DNA from: Escherichia coli
GTDB lineage: Bacteria > Pseudomonadota > Gammaproteobacteria > Enterobacterales > Enterobacteriaceae
DNA: 64,000 nucleotides
Reading direction: 5' to 3' (one strand)
Assembly: GCF_044324785.1 (NCBI RefSeq)
Contig: NZ_CP172127.1
Shown here: positions 11,120 to 44,115 of the stretch, piece after piece
Layout: every line of letters starts with the position of its first letter
Numbering within the stretch: position 1 is the first letter of the stretch
The notes under the pieces: generated by a model
Database searches by the model: none
Seen by the model: the letters and a program-made list of their open reading frames with translations, nothing else
What the model was told of the DNA's origin: nothing
Program-made: the position numbers and the translations under genes

Positions 11120-12441
11120 TGCCCAAACTTGTCACTTGGATGAACAACCAGCGGGTAGGCGAGTTAACGAAGTTAGCCAACGGCGCGCACACCTTTAAGT
11201 ATGCACCGGAGTGGTTAGCCAGCCGTTATGCCAGACCGTTGTCACTTTCGCTGCCATTGCAGAGGGGGAATATCACCTCTGATGCCGTATTTAACTTCTT
11301 CGATAACCTGTTACCCGATAGCCCGATTGTACGTGACCGGATCGTTAAACGCTATCATGCCAAATCCAGACAACCGTTTGATTTATTGTCAGAAATAGGG
11401 CGAGACAGCGTTGGTGCCGTGACGTTAATACCCGAAGACGAAACCGTAACGCATCCGATAATGGCATGGGAAAAGCTTACTGAAGCCAGACTTGAAGAAG
11501 TATTAACGGCTTATAAAGCAGATATCCCGCTAGGCATGATTAGAGAAGAAAATGACTTTCGCATCTCGGTTGCTGGCGCACAGGAGAAGACAGCACTGCT
11601 CAGAATAGGCAATGACTGGTGCATTCCGAAAGGAATAACGCCGACGACGCACATCATTAAATTACCGATTGGCCAAATCAGGCAGCCCAATGCGACGCTC
11701 GATCTCAGCCAAAGCGTTGATAATGAGTATTACTGTCTGCTGCTGGCGAAAGAACTTGGGTTGAATGTTCCGGACGCAGAAATCATTAAAGCGGGAAGGG
11801 TGCGCGCGTTAGCGGTCGAACGTTTTGACAGGCGTTGGAATGCTGAGCGAACGGTTTTACTTCGCTTGCCACAGGAGGATATGTGTCAGACATTCGGTTT
11901 ACCTTCATCGGTGAAATATGAATCAGATGGAGGCCCAGGCATCGCGCGGATCATGGCTTTTTTGATGGGGTCCAGCGAGGCGCTGAAAGATCGCTATGAT
12001 TTTATGAAGTTTCAGGTGTTCCAGTGGTTGATTGGCGCAACGGATGGCCATGCAAAAAACTTCTCCGTATTTATTCAGGCTGGCGGCAGTTATCGACTCA
12101 CGCCATTTTACGACATCATTTCAGCATTTCCGGTATTGGGTGGCGCAGGAATACACATCAGCGATCTCAAACTGGCAATGGGGCTTAACGCATCCAAAGG
12201 CAAAAAAACGGCAATCGATAAAATTTATCCGCGACATTTTCTGGCGACAGCAAAGTTGCTGAAATTTCCGGAAGTGCAGATGCATGAAATCCTGAGTGAC
12301 TTTGCCAGAATGATTCCGGCAGCACTGGATAACGTGAAGACTTCATTACCGACAGATTTTCCGGAGAACGTGGTGACGGCAGTTGAAACCAATGTGTTGA
12401 GGTTGCACCGTCGGTTAAGCCGAGAATACGGTATTAAGTAA
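11119..12441 (+). CDS. hipA: Serine/threonine kinase toxin HipA
   Basis: 440-aa protein MPKLVTWMNNQRVGEL...; ORF opens at 11062 but start is set at the ATG overlapping the hipB stop, as in K-12. Confidence 0.93.
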   Translation: MPKLVTWMNNQRVGELTKLANGAHTFKYAPEWLASRYARPLSLSLPLQRGNITSDAVFNFFDNLLPDSPIVRDRIVKRYHAKSRQPFDLLSEIGRDSVGAVTLIPEDETVTHPIMAWEKLTEARLEEVLTAYKADIPLGMIREENDFRISVAGAQEKTALLRIGNDWCIPKGITPTTHIIKLPIGQIRQPNATLDLSQSVDNEYYCLLLAKELGLNVPDAEIIKAGRVRALAVERFDRRWNAERTVLLRLPQEDMCQTFGLPSSVKYESDGGPGIARIMAFLMGSSEALKDRYDFMKFQVFQWLIGATDGHAKNFSVFIQAGGSYRLTPFYDIISAFPVLGGAGIHISDLKLAMGLNASKGKKTAIDKIYPRHFLATAKLLKFPEVQMHEILSDFARMIPAALDNVKTSLPTDFPENVVTAVETNVLRLHRRLSREYGIK

Positions 12442-12721
12442 GATATGGGGTTTGGTCGTTGTTAATGAGCACGACAATCATGACCGCCAACGACTGGATT
12501 CTTCCTTGGTTTATGTTGGTGCGCATAATGTATATTATGTTAAATGGAGTTTGAGTGATGCGGAGTGATTTTCCGGTCGTCGTTATTACTTCAGGGTTCC
12601 AGAACATAAAGCCTCTCCTCTTTCATAATTGGCCTGTGCATACCGGATATAGCCTGGCTGATATGCAGGTTTGCCGTTTGCCGCATCTTCTCAGCGTTGA
12701 AGAGTCAGGCTGGCAAACCGC

Positions 12722-12976
12722 GTGCAAATGAACCCCCCCTCTTTCCATCAACACTTCAGACAGCTTGCGGGAATGAGTCCACTCCGGTATCAGAAATGGC
12801 TACGCCTCAATGAAGCCAGGCGACTGATGCTGAATGAACATTACGATGTCACCACTGCAGCCTATGCTGTCGGTTACGAAAGCTTATCCCATTTCAGTCG
12901 GGAATATTCGCGGATGTTTGGAGAGTCACCTAAGAGAGATATTACCAGGTTAAGAAAGTCTGTCGGTCAGCTTTAA
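12722..12976 (+). pseudogene. yneL: AraC-family regulator remnant (C-terminal HTH only), yneL-like
   Basis: 84-aa ORF (GTG start) carrying only the second AraC HTH (...SHFSREYSRMFGESPKR...); a short upstream ORF in another frame (about 12546-12731) ends here, so the locus looks like a decayed full-length gene. Confidence 0.7.
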
Positions 12977-13409
12977 TAAACCCTGCACTTATCTGTTTAG
13001 AGCAATTCCGTGTTAGTTACACCAGGCAAACATTAACTATAGCTAATGATTTATAGCCATATAAACCATTAGTCGCTCTTGACCTTTCCTGACACTTCCC
13101 TTGTTCGCAATAATATTCTGTTTAGTCGCTGTTTATAAATATCATGCATAATGAAATCGTCATGTTATTTAGCGACATAAAATGTTTTTGCAAATACTCT
13201 CTACAACAAGTGCTGCAATAAACTTGTTGTGATTAGGTGTCCTTGTAATTTAAAGATATTATCGTTCTTCGTGAAATGTAATAACCCTGGAAACTATATT
13301 CTCAGGGCAACAACCAATTAAGAATGATTCTTGTTTTATAAGCAATAACAGAATGACTTAATTGTTAACTCTCTTTATTCAGCTACTTAAATATAAATTT
13401 TGGAGAATT

Positions 13410-13973
13410 ATGAAACTCAAACATGTCGGTATGATTGTCGTTTCTGTGTTGGCGATGTCGTCTGCTGCGGTAAGCGCAGCCGAGGGTGATGAATCAGTAA
13501 CGACCACTGTTAATGGCGGTGTTATTCATTTTAAAGGTGAAGTGGTAAATGCCGCTTGTGCGATTGATTCAGAATCAATGAACCAAACGGTTGAGCTGGG
13601 TCAGGTCCGTTCTTCTCGTCTGGCTAAAGCGGGTGACCTCAGCTCCGCCGTTGGCTTCAATATCAAGCTGAATGATTGTGATACCAATGTTTCCAGTAAT
13701 GCAGCTGTTGCATTCCTGGGTACTACTGTCACCAGTAATGACGACACATTAGCGCTGCAGAGTTCAGCGGCAGGCTCTGCCCAAAATGTCGGTATTCAAA
13801 TTTTGGACCGTACGGGCGAGGTATTAATACTTGATGGTGCCACTTTCAGCGCTAAAACTGACTTGATTGATGGCACGAATATACTGCCGTTCCAGGCTCG
13901 TTATATTGCTCTCGGGCAGTCAGTAGCTGGTACTGCAAACGCTGATGCGACCTTCAAAGTTCAATATCTATAA
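13410..13973 (+). CDS. F9 (Yde/Fml) fimbrial major subunit, FimA-like
   Basis: 187-aa protein with signal peptide [23 protein letters not shown] and fimbrial subunit C-terminus ...[16 protein letters not shown] upstream; first gene of the chaperone-usher operon. Confidence 0.85.
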
Positions 13974-14326: not shown

Positions 14327-15046
14327 ATGCATCAGATGCAAACTACGCGTACCCCCTACTCTGTTTCCTTTATGGCGACAGTGTTACTTTTATTGGTCTT
14401 TGCTTGCCATAGCACCATTGCCAACGCAGCTGTCGCACTGGGTGCGACGCGGGTAATTTATCCGGCAAACCAGAAACAGGTTTTATTGCCTGTCACGAAT
14501 AATGATCCTGCCAGTGTCTATCTCATTCAGTCATGGATAGAAAATGCAGGTGACCAAAAAGACACCCAGTTTGTCATTACCCCACCGCTTTTTTCCATGC
14601 AAGGTAAAAAAGAGAATACGCTGCGGATAATCAACGCCACTAATCATCAGTTACCAGGCGACCGTGAAAGCCTGTTCTGGGTTAATGTTAAAGCTATTCC
14701 TGCTATGGAAAAAGACCAGAAGAATGAGAATACATTACAGCTGGCAATTATTAGCCGCATAAAAATGTTTTATCGCCCCACGAACCTGGCAATGGCACCT
14801 GAAGAAGCGCCTGCAATGCTTCGGTTTCGTCGCAGCGGCAGCAAACTCACTCTTATTAATCCAACGCCCTACTTCATTACCGTAACAAATATGAAAGCAG
14901 GAAATAGCAATCTCCCAAACACCATGGTGCCGCCAAAAGGTGAAGTATCGGTGGATATCCCGCATGCTGCAACCGGGGATATCAGTTTTCAGACGATCAA
15001 TGATTACGGTGCATTAACTCCGCGTATTAAGGCAACCATGCAGTAA
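14327..15046 (+). CDS. Periplasmic fimbrial chaperone (PapD/FimC family)
   Basis: 239-aa ORF with signal peptide and PapD-like fold features; sits between major subunit and usher; exact start (14327 or a nearby ATG) uncertain. Confidence 0.85.
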   Translation: MHQMQTTRTPYSVSFMATVLLLLVFACHSTIANAAVALGATRVIYPANQKQVLLPVTNNDPASVYLIQSWIENAGDQKDTQFVITPPLFSMQGKKENTLRIINATNHQLPGDRESLFWVNVKAIPAMEKDQKNENTLQLAIISRIKMFYRPTNLAMAPEEAPAMLRFRRSGSKLTLINPTPYFITVTNMKAGNSNLPNTMVPPKGEVSVDIPHAATGDISFQTINDYGALTPRIKATMQ

Positions 15047-15087: not shown

Positions 15088-17739
15088 ATGACATCCTTTC
15101 GTGCCGCATTTAAGGCATATCGTATGCATCAGGTGTTACTACTGCCTCGCTTTGCACGGCTTACCATTGCCCTTGGCTTAGCAACTGCGGTTTTTCCCGT
15201 TGACGCAGAGTATTATTTTAATCCACGGTTTTTAAGCAATGATCTTGCTGAATCTGTCGATTTATCCGCCTTTACTAAGGGACGCGAGGCACCACCTGGT
15301 ACATATCGGGTCGACATTTATTTGAACGACGAATTTATGACTAGTCGGGATATTACTTTTATTGCAGATGATAATAACGCAGATCTCATCCCATGCCTGA
15401 GTACAGATCTTCTTGTCAGTCTTGGCATAAAAAAATCAGCGTTATTAGACAATAAAGAACATTCGGCAGAAAAACATGTGCCGGACAACAGCGCATGCAC
15501 ACCACTTCAGGATCGTTTGGCCGACGCATCAACTGAGTTTGATGTTGGTCAGCAACATCTGTCACTCTCCGTTCCGCAAATTTATGTTGGCAGAATGGCT
15601 CGCGGCTATGTTTCTCCTGATCTGTGGGAAGAAGGAATAAATGCTGGGCTGCTAAACTATAGTTTTAATGGTAATTCTATTAATAATCGTAGTAACCATA
15701 ATGCAGGAAAATCCAACTATGCATATTTGAATTTACAGAGTGGCATCAACATTGGTAGTTGGCGACTGCGCGATAACTCAACGTGGAGTTATAACAGTGG
15801 GAGTAGCAATTCATCTGACAGCAATAAATGGCAGCATATCAATACGTCGGCTGAACGTGACATTATTCCCTTACGCTCACGCTTAACGGTAGGTGATAGT
15901 TATACCGATGGCGATATTTTTGATAGTGTGAACTTTCGTGGCCTCAAAATAAATTCAACAGAAGCGATGTTGCCCGATAGCCAACATGGTTTCGCTCCGG
16001 TGATTCATGGTATTGCCCGCGGCACCGCACAAGTGAGTGTAAAACAGAATGGATACGATGTTTATCAGACTACTGTCCCACCCGGCCCTTTTACTATTGA
16101 TGATATCAACTCTGCGGCCAATGGTGGTGATCTGCAAGTAACCATAAAAGAGGCAGACGGCAGTATTCAGACATTATATGTTCCTTATTCGTCTGTTCCG
16201 GTTCTCCAACGTGCTGGATATACGCGTTATGCGCTTGCCATGGGGGAATATCGTAGTGGAAATAACCTGCAAAGCTCCCCCAAGTTCATACAAGGTAGCT
16301 TGATGCATGGACTGGAAGGAAACTGGACACCTTATGGCGGAATGCAAATTGCAGAAGATTATCAGGCCTTCAACCTTGGTATTGGTAAAGATTTAGGACT
16401 TTTTGGTGCCTTTTCTTTCGATATCACGCAGGCCAATACGACACTTGCAGATGGCACCCGTCACAGCGGGCAATCGATTAAATCCGTCTACAGCAAATCC
16501 TTCTACCAGACGGGAACCAATATCCAGGTCGCAGGATATCGCTATTCTACGCAAGGTTTTTATAACTTATCCGACAGTGCCTACAGTCGAATGAGTGGTT
16601 ACACCGTCAAGCCTCCTACCGGAGACAGCAACGAGCAGACACAATTTATTGATTATTTTAATCTGTTCTACAGTAAGCGTGGTCAGGAACAAATAAGCAT
16701 CTCTCAGCAGCTTGGAAATTACGGTACGACATTTTTCAGTGCCAGTCGCCAAAGTTACTGGAACACGTCACGCAGCGACCAGCAAATATCATTTGGATTA
16801 AATGTGCCGTTTGGTGATATTACGACTTCGCTGAATTACAGCTTTTCCAATAATATATGGCAAAACGATCGGGATCATTTACTTGCTTTTACGCTTAATG
16901 TTCCCTTCAGTCATTGGATGCGTACAGACAGTCAGTCGGCATTTCGTAATTCAAACGCCAGTTACAGTATGTCAAACGATTTGAAAGGCGGCATGACCAA
17001 TCTATCAGGGGTTTATGGCACTCTGCTGCCGGATAATAACCTGAATTATAGCGTTCAGGTAGGTAACACCCACGGAGGTAATACATCGTCTGCCACCAGT
17101 GGTTACAGTTCTCTTAATTATCGTGGAGCTTACGGTAATACGAATGTCGGTTACAGTCGGAGTGGGGACAGCAGCCAGATTTATTACGGAATGAGTGGTG
17201 GGATTATTGCTCATGCTGATGGCATCACCTTTGGTCAGCCGCTGGGCGACACAATGGTTCTGGTTAAGGCTCCTGGCGCTGATAATGTCAAAATAGAGAA
17301 CCAGACCGGTATTCATACCGACTGGCGTGGCTATGCCATATTACCATTTGCGACAGAATATAGAGAAAATCGTGTCGCTCTTAACGCGAATTCCCTTGCA
17401 GATAATGTTGAACTGGATGAAACAGTAGTCACTGTCATCCCAACTCACGGTGCTATTGCCAGAGCAACATTTAATGCACAAATCGGCGGGAAAGTATTAA
17501 TGACGTTGAAGTACGGTAATAAGAGCGTTCCATTCGGTGCAATTGTCACACACGGAGAGAATAAAAATGGCAGCATTGTCGCGGAAAACGGTCAGGTTTA
17601 TCTGACTGGACTTCCACAGTCAGGGAAATTACAGGTTTCATGGGGCAAAGATAAAAACTCAAACTGTATTGTCGAGTACAAGCTTCCTGAAGTTTCTCCT
17701 GGTACCTTACTGAACCAGCAGACAGCAATCTGTCGCTAA
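15088..17739 (+). CDS. ydeT: Fimbrial outer membrane usher (FimD family), full length
   Basis: 883-aa ORF typical of ushers; K-12 ydeT is an N-terminally truncated usher as I recall, here it appears intact. Confidence 0.88.
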   Translation: MTSFRAAFKAYRMHQVLLLPRFARLTIALGLATAVFPVDAEYYFNPRFLSNDLAESVDLSAFTKGREAPPGTYRVDIYLNDEFMTSRDITFIADDNNADLIPCLSTDLLVSLGIKKSALLDNKEHSAEKHVPDNSACTPLQDRLADASTEFDVGQQHLSLSVPQIYVGRMARGYVSPDLWEEGINAGLLNYSFNGNSINNRSNHNAGKSNYAYLNLQSGINIGSWRLRDNSTWSYNSGSSNSSDSNKWQHINTSAERDIIPLRSRLTVGDSYTDGDIFDSVNFRGLKINSTEAMLPDSQHGFAPVIHGIARGTAQVSVKQNGYDVYQTTVPPGPFTIDDINSAANGGDLQVTIKEADGSIQTLYVPYSSVPVLQRAGYTRYALAMGEYRSGNNLQSSPKFIQGSLMHGLEGNWTPYGGMQIAEDYQAFNLGIGKDLGLFGAFSFDITQANTTLADGTRHSGQSIKSVYSKSFYQTGTNIQVAGYRYSTQGFYNLSDSAYSRMSGYTVKPPTGDSNEQTQFIDYFNLFYSKRGQEQISISQQLGNYGTTFFSASRQSYWNTSRSDQQISFGLNVPFGDITTSLNYSFSNNIWQNDRDHLLAFTLNVPFSHWMRTDSQSAFRNSNASYSMSNDLKGGMTNLSGVYGTLLPDNNLNYSVQVGNTHGGNTSSATSGYSSLNYRGAYGNTNVGYSRSGDSSQIYYGMSGGIIAHADGITFGQPLGDTMVLVKAPGADNVKIENQTGIHTDWRGYAILPFATEYRENRVALNANSLADNVELDETVVTVIPTHGAIARATFNAQIGGKVLMTLKYGNKSVPFGAIVTHGENKNGSIVAENGQVYLTGLPQSGKLQVSWGKDKNSNCIVEYKLPEVSPGTLLNQQTAICR

Positions 17740-39469: not shown

Positions 39470-40852
39470 ATGGAGATGTATTTTAAAAGAATGAAAGATG
39501 AGTGGACCGGGCTTGTCGAACAAGCAGATCCGCTCATTCGTGCTAAAGCCGCGGAAATTGCCGTTGCGCATGCCCATTATCTGAGTATTGAGTTTTACCG
39601 AATTGTCCGTATCGACCCGCATGCCGAAGAATTCTTGAGTAATGAACAAGTTGAGCGGCAGTTGAAAAGTGCGATGGAACGCTGGATTATTAACGTGCTT
39701 TCTGCCCAGGTTGACGATGTCGAAAGGCTAATACAAATCCAGCATACCGTTGCGGAAGTGCATGCCCGCATAGGAATTCCGGTAGAAATTGTCGAGATGG
39801 GGTTTCGGGTGCTGAAAAAAATCCTCTATCCAGTCATCTTCTCTTCGGATTATTCCGCCGCAGAAAAACTTCAGGTCTACCATTTCTCGATTAACAGTAT
39901 TGATATCGCGATGGAAGTGATGACTCGCGCGTTTACCTTTAGTGACAGTAGTGCCTCAAAGGAAGATGAAAACTATCGTATCTTCTCGTTACTGGAAAAC
40001 GCCGAAGAAGAAAAAGAACGGCAAATAGCCTCAATACTTTCATGGGAAATAGATATTATCTATAAAGTCCTGCTGGATTCTGATTTAGGCAGTAGTTTGC
40101 CTTTAAGCCAGGCTGATTTTGGCCTGTGGTTTAACCATAAAGGTCGACATTATTTTAGCGGCATAGCCGAAGTGGGCCATATCTCCCGTCTGATTCAGGA
40201 TTTCGACGGTATTTTCAATCAAACCATGCGTAATACCAGGAATTTGAATAACAGAAGTTTGCGGGTGAAATTTTTATTACAGATAAGAAATACCGTATCG
40301 CAAATTATTACCTTGCTGCGTGAATTGTTTGAAGAAGTATCGCGCCACGAAGTCGGTATGGATGTCCTGACGAAATTACTTAACCGCCGTTTCCTACCGA
40401 CGATCTTCAAACGCGAAATTGCCCATGCCAACCGGACCGGTACACCGCTGTCAGTGCTGATTATTGACGTTGATAAATTCAAAGAGATCAACGATACGTG
40501 GGGCCATAACACTGGCGATGAAATTCTGCGTAAAGTCTCTCAGGCCTTTTATGACAACGTCCGCAGTAGTGATTATGTTTTCCGCTACGGGGGCGATGAA
40601 TTTATCATTGTTTTGACTGAAGCTTCGGAAAACGAAACGTTACGTACCGCAGAACGTATTCGCAGTCGGGTGGAGAAAACCAAACTGAAAGCCGCAAACG
40701 GCGAAGATATTGCCCTCTCACTTTCCATCGGTGCCGCCATGTTTAATGGTCATCCTGACTATGAGCGCCTCATTCAAATAGCCGATGAAGCTCTGTATAT
40801 CGCCAAAAGACGAGGTAGAAACCGTGTTGAACTCTGGAAAGCCAGTCTTTAG
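39470..40852 (+). CDS. dosC: Globin-coupled diguanylate cyclase DosC
   Basis: 460-aa ORF, N-terminal globin sensor and C-terminal GGDEF domain (RYGGDEF); stop abuts the next ORF. Confidence 0.93.
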   Translation: MEMYFKRMKDEWTGLVEQADPLIRAKAAEIAVAHAHYLSIEFYRIVRIDPHAEEFLSNEQVERQLKSAMERWIINVLSAQVDDVERLIQIQHTVAEVHARIGIPVEIVEMGFRVLKKILYPVIFSSDYSAAEKLQVYHFSINSIDIAMEVMTRAFTFSDSSASKEDENYRIFSLLENAEEEKERQIASILSWEIDIIYKVLLDSDLGSSLPLSQADFGLWFNHKGRHYFSGIAEVGHISRLIQDFDGIFNQTMRNTRNLNNRSLRVKFLLQIRNTVSQIITLLRELFEEVSRHEVGMDVLTKLLNRRFLPTIFKREIAHANRTGTPLSVLIIDVDKFKEINDTWGHNTGDEILRKVSQAFYDNVRSSDYVFRYGGDEFIIVLTEASENETLRTAERIRSRVEKTKLKAANGEDIALSLSIGAAMFNGHPDYERLIQIADEALYIAKRRGRNRVELWKASL

Positions 40853-40876
40853 ATGCGCCAGGATGCAGAGGTAATC

Positions 40877-43276
40877 ATGAAGCTAACCGATGCGGATAAT
40901 GCCGCCGATGGCATTTTTTTCCCCGCCCTTGAGCAAAATATGATGGGTGCGGTGTTAATTAACGAAAATGATGAAGTGATGTTTTTCAACCCCGCCGCAG
41001 AGAAGCTCTGGGGGTACAAACGTGAAGAAGTCATTGGCAATAACATTGATATGCTGATTCCGCGGGATTTGCGTCCCGCGCATCCTGAATACATCCGTCA
41101 CAACCGTGAAGGCGGTAAAGCGCGCGTCGAGGGGATGAGTCGGGAGCTGCAGCTGGAGAAAAAAGACGGCAGTAAAATCTGGCCCCGTTTTGCGCTATCG
41201 AAAGTGAGCGCCGAGGGGAAAGTTTATTACCTGGCACTGGTACGGGATGCCAGCGTAGAAATGGCGCAAAAAGAACAGACCCGACAATTGATTATTGCCG
41301 TTGACCATCTCGACCGACCGGTGATTGTCCTCGATCCGGAACGCCATATTGTGCAGTGCAATCGTGCATTTACCGAAATGTTTGGTTACTGCATTAGCGA
41401 AGCCAGCGGTATGCAGCCCGATACACTCCTGAACATTCCAGAATTCCCTGCTGATAACCGCATTCGTTTACAACAGTTGCTATGGAAAACCGCCCGCGAT
41501 CAGGACGAATTTCTGCTGTTGACGCGCACCGGTGAAAAAATCTGGATTAAAGCCTCTATCAGCCCGGTCTATGATGTGCTCGCGCATCTGCAGAACCTGG
41601 TAATGACTTTCTCGGATATCACCGAAGAACGGCAAATCCGCCAGCTTGAAGGCAATATTCTCGCCGCCATGTGCAGCAGCCCGCCATTTCATGAAATGGG
41701 GGAAATTATTTGTCGTAACATCGAATCTGTACTCAACGAATCGCATGTTTCGCTGTTCGCGCTGCGCAACGGGATGCCGATACACTGGGCGTCATCTTCG
41801 CACGGTACAGAAGTTCAAAATGCGCAAAGCTGGTCAGCGACCATTCGTCAGCGTGATGGCGCGCCGGCGGGGATCCTGCAAATTAAAACCTCGTCAGGAG
41901 CAGAAACCAGCGCCTTTATCGAACGCGTGGCAGATATCAGCCAGCATATGGCCGCGCTGGCGCTGGAACAGGAAAAAAGCCGTCAGCATATTGAACAACT
42001 CATCCAATTTGATCCGATGACCGGTCTGCCAAATCGCAATAACCTGCACAATTACCTCGATGACCTGGTCGACAAAGCCGTCTCTCCGGTGGTGTATCTC
42101 ATCGGTGTTGACCATATTCAGGATGTGATTGATAGCCTTGGCTATGCGTGGGCCGATCAGGCATTGCTGGAAGTGGTCAATCGCTTTCGTGAAAAACTCA
42201 AACCGGATCAGTATCTCTGTCGTATCGAAGGTACGCAGTTTGTCCTCGTGAGCCTCGAAAACGACGTCAGTAACATTACCCAGATCGCCGATGAGCTACG
42301 GAATGTGGTCAGCAAGCCGATAATGATTGACGATAAACCATTCCCGCTCACCTTGAGTATTGGCATCAGCTACGACGTGGGTAAAAACCGCGATTACCTG
42401 CTCTCCACTGCTCACAATGCAATGGATTTTATTCGCAAAAATGGCGGTAACGGCTGGCAGTTCTTCAGCCCGGCGATGAACGAAATGGTAAAAGAGCGTT
42501 TGGTTTTAGGCGCGGCGCTGAAAGAAGCAATTAGCAATAACCAACTGAAACTGGTTTACCAGCCACAAATCTTCGCAGAAACGGGTGAACTGTACGGCAT
42601 CGAAGCCCTTGCTCGCTGGCACGATCCCCTGCATGGTCATGTGCCCCCTTCACGGTTTATTCCTCTCGCAGAAGAGATCGGTGAAATCGAAAATATTGGA
42701 CGCTGGGTCATCGCGGAAGCTTGTCGTCAGTTAGCAGAATGGCGTAGCCAGAATATTCATATCCCGGCGCTTTCCGTTAACTTGTCGGCGCTGCACTTTC
42801 GCAGTAATCAACTGCCTAATCAGGTGTCTGATGCAATGCACGCCTGGGGTATTGACGGCCACCAGCTGACGGTGGAAATAACGGAAAGCATGATGATGGA
42901 ACACGATACCGAAATCTTTAAGCGCATTCAGATCCTGCGCGATATGGGCGTGGGTTTATCGGTAGATGATTTTGGCACGGGCTTTTCCGGATTATCCCGC
43001 TTAGTCAGTCTTCCGGTAACGGAAATCAAAATTGACAAAAGTTTTGTCGATCGTTGTCTGACCGAAAAACGCATCCTTGCCTTACTTGAAGCCATTACCA
43101 GCATTGGGCAAAGCCTCAATTTAACCGTCGTGGCGGAAGGCGTCGAAACCAAAGAGCAATTTGAGATGCTACGCAAGATCCACTGTCGCGTTATTCAGGG
43201 ATATTTCTTTTCCCGCCCCCTGCCCGCCGAAGAAATTCCAGGCTGGATGAGCAGTGTGTTACCGCTGAAAATCTGA
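40877..43276 (+). CDS. dosP: Heme-regulated c-di-GMP phosphodiesterase DosP (PAS-PAS-GGDEF-EAL)
   Basis: 799-aa protein MKLTDADNAADGIFFPALEQ... with EAL motif; ORF opens at 40853 right after the dosC stop, ATG at 40877 matches the conserved N-terminus. Confidence 0.92.
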   Translation: MKLTDADNAADGIFFPALEQNMMGAVLINENDEVMFFNPAAEKLWGYKREEVIGNNIDMLIPRDLRPAHPEYIRHNREGGKARVEGMSRELQLEKKDGSKIWPRFALSKVSAEGKVYYLALVRDASVEMAQKEQTRQLIIAVDHLDRPVIVLDPERHIVQCNRAFTEMFGYCISEASGMQPDTLLNIPEFPADNRIRLQQLLWKTARDQDEFLLLTRTGEKIWIKASISPVYDVLAHLQNLVMTFSDITEERQIRQLEGNILAAMCSSPPFHEMGEIICRNIESVLNESHVSLFALRNGMPIHWASSSHGTEVQNAQSWSATIRQRDGAPAGILQIKTSSGAETSAFIERVADISQHMAALALEQEKSRQHIEQLIQFDPMTGLPNRNNLHNYLDDLVDKAVSPVVYLIGVDHIQDVIDSLGYAWADQALLEVVNRFREKLKPDQYLCRIEGTQFVLVSLENDVSNITQIADELRNVVSKPIMIDDKPFPLTLSIGISYDVGKNRDYLLSTAHNAMDFIRKNGGNGWQFFSPAMNEMVKERLVLGAALKEAISNNQLKLVYQPQIFAETGELYGIEALARWHDPLHGHVPPSRFIPLAEEIGEIENIGRWVIAEACRQLAEWRSQNIHIPALSVNLSALHFRSNQLPNQVSDAMHAWGIDGHQLTVEITESMMMEHDTEIFKRIQILRDMGVGLSVDDFGTGFSGLSRLVSLPVTEIKIDKSFVDRCLTEKRILALLEAITSIGQSLNLTVVAEGVETKEQFEMLRKIHCRVIQGYFFSRPLPAEEIPGWMSSVLPLKI

Positions 43277-43533
43277 CAAATTCCTCTCGCCCGCACTCGC
43301 GGGTTTTCATTTAACGTGACACTGTCACTTAAATACTGTGATTTCAGCTACGATTCCGGGAGATTCCTTCCTTAACTTCCCCTCTTGCACCAAAACTGCA
43401 CTACGCTGCACAAATGTTGATCAAAAGTTAAAAAATATAACTTTAAGCCAGCATTCTGGCGCTTATCCCGGCATGGCATGAGATCTGCATAAGCGGAAAG
43501 CGCAGCAATTTTTGTCTTATACAGGAACCGTTT

Positions 43534-44115
43534 ATGTCGGATACCACCGAACTGGTTGATTTAGCCGTGATCTTCCCTGATCTGGAGATCGAACTGAAAT
43601 ACGCCTGCGCGGATAACATCACAGGTAAAGCTATTTATCAGCAAGCGCGTTGTCTGTTACACAAGGATGCGATTACCGCGCTGGCGAAAAGTATCAGCAT
43701 CGCCCAGCTGTCAGGCTTACAACTGGTGATTTACGATGCGTATCGCCCACAACAAGCACAGGCGATGTTGTGGCAAGCCTGCCCAGACCCGCAATATGTT
43801 GTTGATGTGACGGTCGGTTCTAATCACAGCCGTGGCACGGCGATCGACCTGACGCTTCGTGATGAGCACGGGAACATCCTGGATATGGGCGCAGAGTTCG
43901 ATGAAATGCACGAACGTTCCCATGCTTATCACCCTTCCGTCCCGCCCGCTGCTCAGCGCAATCGGCTGTTGCTGAATGCGATTATGACTGGCGGTGGCTT
44001 TGTCGGTATCCCGAGCGAATGGTGGCACTTCGAATTACCCCAGGCAGCGAGTTACCCACTACTCGCTGATCAATTCACCTGTTTTATATCCCCTGGCACA
44101 CAGCACGCCAGTTAA
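43534..44115 (+). CDS. ddpX: D-alanyl-D-alanine dipeptidase DdpX (VanX homolog)
   Basis: 193-aa ORF with VanX-like zinc-site residues (SNHSRGTAIDLT, EWWHFE); first gene of ddpXABCDF. Confidence 0.92.
   Translation: MSDTTELVDLAVIFPDLEIELKYACADNITGKAIYQQARCLLHKDAITALAKSISIAQLSGLQLVIYDAYRPQQAQAMLWQACPDPQYVVDVTVGSNHSRGTAIDLTLRDEHGNILDMGAEFDEMHERSHAYHPSVPPAAQRNRLLLNAIMTGGGFVGIPSEWWHFELPQAASYPLLADQFTCFISPGTQHAS

Follow-up and report, generated by a model that had tools for sequence, protein, structure and literature searches.

The 64,000-nucleotide stretch of Escherichia coli DNA analysed here (the window) carries, in this order, hipB, hipA, the dif site, the remnant of a regulatory gene, and the major-subunit, chaperone and usher genes of the F9 fimbrial cluster. 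The ORF list of the window contains an 84-amino-acid (aa) ORF with a GTG start on the + strand (12722-12976). It also contains, on the same strand and in a different frame, a 58-aa ORF with a GTG start (12555-12731), which shares a 10-nt overlap with the start of the 84-aa ORF. A preliminary description of the DNA, made from the letters alone, had placed a C-terminal helix-turn-helix (HTH) ORF with a GTG start between hipA and the fimbrial genes. Both the ORF and its location, between the hipA stop (12441) and the ATG of the gene for the F9 major subunit (13410), could be confirmed. The short upstream ORF to which it drew attention also exists, lies in another frame and meets the start of the 84-aa ORF, but starts at 12555 and not at 'about 12546'. 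The features of the region are as follows.

11119-12441, + strand: hipA, left neighbour of dif; the ORF ends at 12441 and RefSeq has a 1323-nt hipA at the equivalent position of locus L001
12467-12517, no strand assigned: left flank of dif, conserved; 75% identity between window 12467-12546 and Citrobacter youngae L009 3365-3444
12518-12545, + strand: dif, the 28-bp XerC/XerD chromosome dimer resolution site GGTGCGCATAATGTATATTATGTTAAAT; exact match
12555-12731, + strand: 58-aa ORF, spurious; it reads antisense through the DUF2255 and hydrolase scraps and then through the first codons of the remnant out of frame
12556-12627, - strand: scrap of a DUF2255 gene; BLASTN identity 85-91% to Klebsiella L006 3668-3694 and 3710-3754 and to Enterobacter L010 2953-2997
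12628-12647, no strand assigned: 20-bp interval between the scraps, with no match in any reference locus; the K-12-type allele shares it up to 12641
12648-12707, - strand: internal scrap of an alpha/beta-hydrolase gene; 88-91% identical to L009 5015-5074, L006 4295-4354 and L013 5073-5127, with E values down to 2e-18
12708-12709, no strand assigned: deletion junction, with hydrolase-derived DNA on the left and AraC-derived DNA on the right in alignments to L009 on both sides
12710-12976, + strand: yneL remnant, by homology to intact orthologues codons 217-304 and the stop of a 304-aa AraC_N/HTH_18 regulator
12722-12976, + strand: 84-aa GTG ORF inside the yneL remnant
13123-13159, + strand: f9 promoter, with -35 TAGTCG, an 18-bp spacer and -10 CATAAT (13123-13152) and an inferred start at G 13159; exact pattern match

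The 84-aa product matches the Pfam family HTH_18 with 80.3 bits (cutoff 33.6) over positions 6-76 of the 80-position profile, far above chance, and HTH_AraC is matched too. Such a match above the cutoff points clearly to an AraC/XylS family origin of the fragment. The upstream + strand ORFs 12555-12728 and 12452-12565 gave no Pfam family match.

RefSeq labels the gene 'helix-turn-helix domain-containing protein; incomplete; missing N-terminus' (a pseudogene), and its counterpart in MG1655 is the pseudogene yneL (b1506). Clearly, yneL is already known and catalogued as a pseudogene. The two annotations bear out the suggestion of the preliminary description that this is a decayed AraC-family gene and not a dedicated small regulator. 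The order hipA, dif, remnant, F9 cluster recurs in loci L001, L019 and L020 and in MG1655, where it is the position of yneL, and among 5,426 complete E. coli genomes a megablast search found the interval in practically every one. In a pairwise alignment with MG1655 1590241-1590701, the window is near-identical from dif to 12641 and again over 12773-12990, beyond the stop, and the junction block differs. Position, near-identity and a shared origin in an AraC-type C-terminal HTH all point to orthology of the window remnant with K-12 yneL. Compared with the K-12 gene, the window remnant is 19 codons longer, is accompanied by the internal hydrolase scrap and represents the rarer junction allele.

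E. coli genomes differ more from one another in the flank of dif (12400-13400) than in the dosCP region (40000-44000), 28 kb away: most genomes show 90-95% identity across the former and 95-99% across the latter. The dosCP region of the window is 99.7% identical to that of E. coli strain N3.

The intact regulator and the deletion junction

The intact gene was reached through a search with the fragment, which led to longer partial Klebsiella proteins, and then through a scan of species-representative genomes. The consensus of four noisy Klebsiella assemblies was still frameshifted, and the protein patched from it served as a search probe only; clean full-length sequences were taken from loci L009-L013. 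These orthologues come from five species: Citrobacter youngae (L009), Enterobacter vonholyi (L010), Klebsiella michiganensis (L011), Enterobacter sp. MGH 24 (L012) and Enterobacter mori (L013). They are 304 aa long and carry an AraC_N domain (PF06719, 153.6 bits) together with HTH_18. The remnant, whose beginning corresponds to L009 6648, is 85-88% identical to them in DNA and 90% in protein.

In the intact loci the regulator is divergent from an alpha/beta-hydrolase gene, which is followed by a DUF2255 gene. The hydrolase ORF of L009 (4653-5834, - strand) matches Peptidase_S15, Abhydrolase_1 and DLH. In Enterobacter, and in an E. coli genomic island, a gene for an Fe-type alcohol dehydrogenase (ADH) sits between. 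AraC_N and HTH_18 together with a divergent operon are present in the intact loci L009-L013 and L016, and the window copy keeps scraps only.

The closest parallel that we can offer in E. coli itself is YqhC, the AraC_N-type activator of yqhD-dkgA, with which the intact regulator shares 30% identity over 255 aa (E = 1e-38). YqhC has the same architecture (AraC_N PF06719 plus HTH_18) as the intact ancestor, and the likeness extends to the neighbour, since the Fe-ADH with which the Enterobacter regulator is divergently paired is 33% identical to YqhD. However, YqhC is a paralogue and not the same gene: the ancestral operon adds an alpha/beta hydrolase and a DUF2255 protein and, unlike YqhC, the window copy is without any sensing domain. 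By analogy, the ancestral regulator would have controlled the divergent hydrolase operon.

The E. coli island (argW-intS) is prophage-like and is located about 0.9 Mb away. It carries the intact module (regulator WP_000622442.1) in 86 of the 5,426 genomes. The module belongs to the same gene family and gives a picture of the former state of the locus beside dif. The island module shares about 93% identity with the Citrobacter module, whereas for the window remnant and the Citrobacter gene the figure is about 87%, which argues that the module was acquired separately and is not the source of the remnant. A further piece of the gene was seen in Enterobacter vonholyi: about 1.9 kb downstream of the intact copy, beside a truncated MFS transporter gene, lies a second, 114-bp scrap of the 3' end of the regulator (L010 8757-8870), 87% identical to the window.

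When the window is compared with these loci (TBLASTN and BLASTN), homology to the intact regulator begins abruptly at 12709/12710, which is codon 217. To the right of this point, the DNA identity of 85-88% continues up to a few bases beyond the stop. To the left, the 280 bp from hipA to the start of homology do not represent decayed AraC sequence but contain colinear, opposite-strand scraps of the ancestral neighbours. The DUF2255 scrap retains the start codon (12607-12605) and about 17 codons of the N-terminus, from within which 15 bp are deleted, as well as the ribosome binding site (RBS) and upstream region; its minus-strand translation, MFWNPEVITT, aligns to DUF2255 N-termini. The hydrolase scrap has an in-frame TGA, read directly from the sequence, where the hydrolase has Trp, and also matches CDSs annotated as 'alpha/beta hydrolase' in E. 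coli. The DNA missing at the junction amounts to about 1.57 kb relative to L009 and 1.77 kb relative to L006. Gone with it are the hydrolase gene's 5' part, the promoter region that lay between the two genes and served both, and 216 regulator codons.

The preliminary description had taken the gene to be frameshifted or internally deleted, with the short ORF as its upstream part. At first sight a frameshift has some appeal: two ORFs in different frames abut, there is a C7 homopolymer run at 12733-12739, a superficial likeness ('SVEE' versus 'RVEE') occurs just before the junction, and a few ORF calls of 136-139 aa in the databases fuse both frames. The last of these we found among E. coli ORF calls with a hand-built fusion of frame 0 to frame 2 ('...LLSVEESGWQTACK' + 'MNPPSF...'), a model that was dropped when DNA alignment identified the upstream bases as the antisense strand of the hydrolase gene. 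The space available argues against a frameshift as well, since the 216 missing codons need 648 bp and the distance from the hipA stop to the ORF is no more than 280 bp. The check proposed in the preliminary description, TBLASTN with the full-length regulator (305 aa as used here), reconstructed no ancestral frame upstream and gave no match before codon 218. Moreover, the upstream DNA, including the 'SVEE' bases, is 88-91% identical to hydrolase and DUF2255 genes on the opposite strand. That a full-length gene is still present in frameshifted form, with 12555-12731 as its upstream part, is therefore scarcely conceivable. The preliminary description had itself named an unrelated upstream ORF as a finding that would count against it, and an ORF made of antisense neighbour scraps is exactly this. 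It also means that the gene was shortened by deletions and not by a frameshift. Judged from the alignments, then, the N-terminus was lost by deletion. 'Internally deleted' came nearer to this, but the loss is a 5' truncation that also took the promoter.

The following course of events would explain the present arrangement. A YqhC-like AraC_N/HTH_18 regulator would have stood on the right flank of dif, divergent from a hydrolase-DUF2255 operon that in some relatives also includes an iron-type alcohol dehydrogenase. Successive deletions, with no obvious microhomology, would then have removed most of the DUF2255 gene and of the hydrolase gene, the promoter region shared with the regulator, and the regulator's first 216 codons; these encode the sensing domain together with 13 residues at the start of the first HTH_AraC repeat. 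The remainder would be 88 regulator codons fused to antisense scraps; the 84-aa ORF would be the residual frame, and the 58-aa upstream ORF a chance frame across the scraps.

Another frame in the interval may mislead gene callers. On the minus strand, a 57-aa ORF (12434-12607) begins with the start codon left over from DUF2255, whose RBS is still present upstream, and crosses dif into the end of hipA. It is almost certainly meaningless and a likely source of spurious gene calls.

Junction alleles and the coding capacity of the remnant

The junction exists in two forms. Allele A, that of the window, was found in 813 of the 5,426 E. coli genomes and is 95-99% identical among strains. Allele B, the K-12 type, was found in 3,046 of the same 5,426, nearly all of which show at least 99% identity; this uniformity suggests a younger allele or a recent spread. 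In allele B (compared as L003 3238-3358) the sequence corresponding to 12642-12772 is replaced by a scrap of the hydrolase 3' end (L006 3859-3940), the AraC remnant begins 19 codons later, and a 1-bp deletion at the position of window 12884 breaks the frame. An inversion of 12642-12772 in K-12-type strains was considered and rejected: there is no minus-strand match and the block is a different hydrolase scrap. Since the hydrolase pieces in alleles A and B do not overlap, the two would descend from a longer common ancestor by different deletions.

Additional changes are seen around the junction. In K-12-type strains, including L003, the DNA is also missing from about window 13232 to a point within the usher gene ydeT. 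One E. coli locus carries an IS2 insertion in the interval between dif and F9, and an AraC-FimA fusion ORF (P0045) is known from the same interval and has been discussed as 'YneL with a FimA domain' (PMC9308461). Some E. coli lineages (ST131-type) are without the remnant entirely, yet retain the sequence just downstream.

It might be proposed that the 84-aa ORF functions as a stand-alone mini-regulator with a single AraC-type HTH. The strong HTH_18 match would fit, as would the 88-codon frame, which is open in all five allele-A sequences examined, although an open frame is expected by chance at 1-5% divergence over 267 nt. The DNA-binding domain, which in the AraC/XylS family measures about 100 aa and contains two HTH motifs, is however incomplete. 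In the intact protein the first HTH_AraC repeat comprises residues 204-244, and the domain aligns to MarA 13-107 from residue 197 onwards. With residue 217 as the start of the remnant and residue 221 as that of the ORF, the 84-aa ORF is without the first 17 residues of the repeat; the missing part presumably corresponds to helix 1 and most of helix 2 of MarA. In addition, the AraC_N (PF06719) sensing and dimerisation domain is absent from the window copy.

Signals for expression were also sought. A consensus scan of the + strand over 12300-12722 gave no sigma-70-like promoter site, the ancestral promoter region of the regulator being within the deleted interval, and direct reading found no clear Shine-Dalgarno sequence before GTG 12722 or ATG 12728. 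Both results speak against an active mini-regulator. A microarray signal for yneL in K-12, cited in a review (PMC9308461), speaks for one. Because a consensus scan over 12442-13450 found no intrinsic-terminator-like site after hipA, transcripts of hipBA may read through dif and the remnant, and this could account for the reported signal. According to a preprint, deletion of yneL alone in K-12 was without effect in its assay, the one reported. For the delB deletion in K-12, growth that depends on cSDR is likewise reported to be unchanged.

Constraint on the remnant was estimated as dN/dS over 88 shared codons from five allele-A remnants and the intact orthologues, a small sample with phylogeny ignored; the rows for L016, which had been sliced one codon out of register, were left out of the reading. 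The ratio is 0.38-0.88 for the remnants compared with 0.03-0.14 for the intact genes. Variable sites in the remnants are distributed 6:5:6 over the three codon positions. With 12 nonsynonymous and 7 synonymous changes, omega values of 0.08 (p = 8e-5) and 0.14 (p = 0.005) are rejected and neutrality is not (p = 0.17), the dN/dS being below 1 and not equal to 1. These values suggest that constraint is relaxed, and are supportive of decay without being decisive. Taken together with the broken frame in the majority, K-12-type allele and the loss of the remnant from at least some genomes (ST131-type), they make a functional mini-regulator very unlikely.

We consider it highly probable that 12546-12976 is the yneL pseudogene, without a function of its own, and that it is a deletion-made relic of a YqhC-like regulator beside dif. 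The junctions, the sources of the scraps, the orthology with yneL, the relaxed constraint and the adjacency to dif all come directly from this analysis; the product of the 84-aa ORF would be absent or inactive.

The dif site and recurrent deletion on its right flank

The interval singled out in the preliminary description, from 12546, begins one base after dif, which was not flagged there. This 28-mer (12518-12545) is the one functional element here, and it abuts the pseudogene without being part of it. It is identical at 28 of 28 positions to the experimentally confirmed E. coli dif (sequence quoted in PMC3025954) and occurs as a single exact copy in the window and in none of the shuffled sequences. 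A preprint places the K-12 dif in a 114-bp interval between yneL and hipA, and the activity of the identical K-12 site in Xer/FtsK recombination is established in the literature. The 28-bp block is conserved across Klebsiella, Citrobacter, Enterobacter and Escherichia loci: among the 12 related loci that contain it, the core is identical in 11 and has one mismatch in L007, and the flanks differ.

FtsK-orienting sequences (KOPS, GGGNAGGG) provide a second line of evidence. Ten such sites lie between 8762 and 56695 of the window; the + strand carries all three of those left of dif, and the - strand all seven of those to its right. The probability of this switch of polarity at dif arising by chance is about 0.001. 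The perfect polarisation implies that the window spans the replication terminus, the point of FtsK convergence. GC skew falls from positive to about zero at 12-16 kb with no sharp sign change and is uninformative alone; the decision rested on KOPS polarity. With a XerC arm, a 6-bp centre and a XerD arm that agree with the species consensus over 28 bp, a single copy and KOPS converging on it near the terminus, the element has the properties expected of a dif site.

Other identities were considered for the conserved 25-28-bp element (an IS terminal repeat, an operator, the leader of a small ORF, or an RNA) and rejected in favour of dif; an Rfam search with the element gave no match. The adjacency of ISKpn21 to it was judged coincidental or secondary. 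This adjacency is seen on the plasmid pECO-cbb3 (NZ_CP026206.1), where 33 bp identical to dif and its left flank (L018 2501-2533) lie about 100 bp from the start of the transposase gene of ISKpn21 (ISNCY family), and in several K. pneumoniae chromosomes, where ISKpn21 also abuts dif (L005-L008, about 400-430). The IS may target dif or may have captured a copy of it. An E. coli-type dif, together with a K-12-type yneL allele, also occurs on contig L015 (JARKOR010000214.1). This is binned as 'Candidatus Nanosynbacter' but is probably a misbinned Escherichia contig.

Erosion of the regulator beside dif is not confined to E. coli. In K. pneumoniae ATCC 13883 a single 5.28-kb deletion extends from just right of dif to about codon 223 of the same regulator, and in a second Klebsiella contig a deletion reaches about codon 134. 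The junctions (L014 5546-6013/6011-8000 and L008 3855-5582/5582-7454) show an overlap of 1-3 bp. K. pneumoniae lineages have truncated the regulator independently of E. coli, and decay beside dif is ongoing and recurrent.

Two ideas can be derived from this. One is that, across Enterobacteriaceae, deletions recur in a hotspot on the right flank of dif, and that the hydrolase-regulator module there has undergone erosion on at least four independent occasions. Its basis is the two E. coli alleles and the two K. pneumoniae lineages, in each of which the last 70-170 codons of the regulator survive. If true, deletion pressure associated with the terminus or with Xer would be implied, countered by selection for a boundary element in or just beyond the 3' end of the gene. 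The data are compatible with a hotspot on the dif flank with a protected boundary but do not establish it, and we regard it as rather doubtful. The other idea is that the DNA is kept for a role in cis, be it to buffer the H-NS-bound f9 promoter against dif, or because it forms the 3' boundary past which deletions spreading from dif would do harm to the neighbours. The endpoints of four independent deletions all lie within this one gene (codons about 134-236), with the 3' end left in place, and in both genera the next functional element is about 140-150 bp past the stop. The ST131-type lineages, however, have dispensed with the remnant and kept the sequence downstream, and no specific element was found (zero Rfam matches, terminators or repeats). 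A role in cis is accordingly unlikely.

The F9 operon and annotation of the locus

The F9 cluster is complete at its 5' end in the window, with a FimA-like major subunit (13410-13973), a chaperone (14327-15046) and an usher (15088-17739). The remnant is adjacent to it, has the same orientation, and its stop lies 147 bp upstream of the f9 -35 element. From its position the preliminary description had suggested that the gene was once the dedicated regulator of the F9 (ydeQRST/fml) operon. The intact orthologues do not lend themselves to this. They pair divergently with hydrolase, ADH and DUF2255 genes and never with fimbrial neighbours: no fimbrial gene was found within 6 kb of the intact regulator in Citrobacter, two Enterobacter loci, Klebsiella or the E. 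coli island. In the window itself, scraps of the hydrolase and DUF2255 partner genes are still present beside the remnant.

The operon also has its own promoter. In strain CFT073 the f9 promoter elements have been mapped, with transcription starting 251 nt upstream of the major-subunit ATG, and H-NS has been identified as the f9 repressor (PMC3966885). Subtracting 251 from the ATG at 13410 gives an inferred transcription start at 13159 in the window. The same study reports that the f9 operon is unique to E. coli and that the variable 5' region upstream of it contains hypothetical regulators, with no evidence that these control f9 (PMC3966885). With the intact gene free of fimbrial neighbours in every genome examined and a mapped, H-NS-repressed promoter in place, former control of F9 by this regulator is most improbable, and we have abandoned the suggestion. 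The remnant and F9 are adjacent because all that formerly separated them has been lost.

The biological weight of these results is small: the gene is a catalogued pseudogene, and what has been removed is a speculative tie to fimbrial regulation. The analysis adds the origin of yneL in a YqhC-like module next to dif, the precise junctions, the pair of E. coli alleles, the parallels in Klebsiella, and dif. In practical terms it is of some use for annotation. RefSeq still lists some 82-84-aa products of the locus as 'AraC family transcriptional regulator', and fused 136-139-aa ORFs or AraC-FimA chimeric ORFs have passed for real proteins. The repeated erosion beside dif may be of interest to students of terminus-region evolution.

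A final observation concerns the other side of hipBA. Upstream of it, the window contains an intact 1822-aa ORF of the ECSE_1600 autotransporter family (5174-10642); its counterpart in those K-12-like, O157:H7 and SMS-3-5 loci that were examined carries an annotation as frameshifted or truncated.
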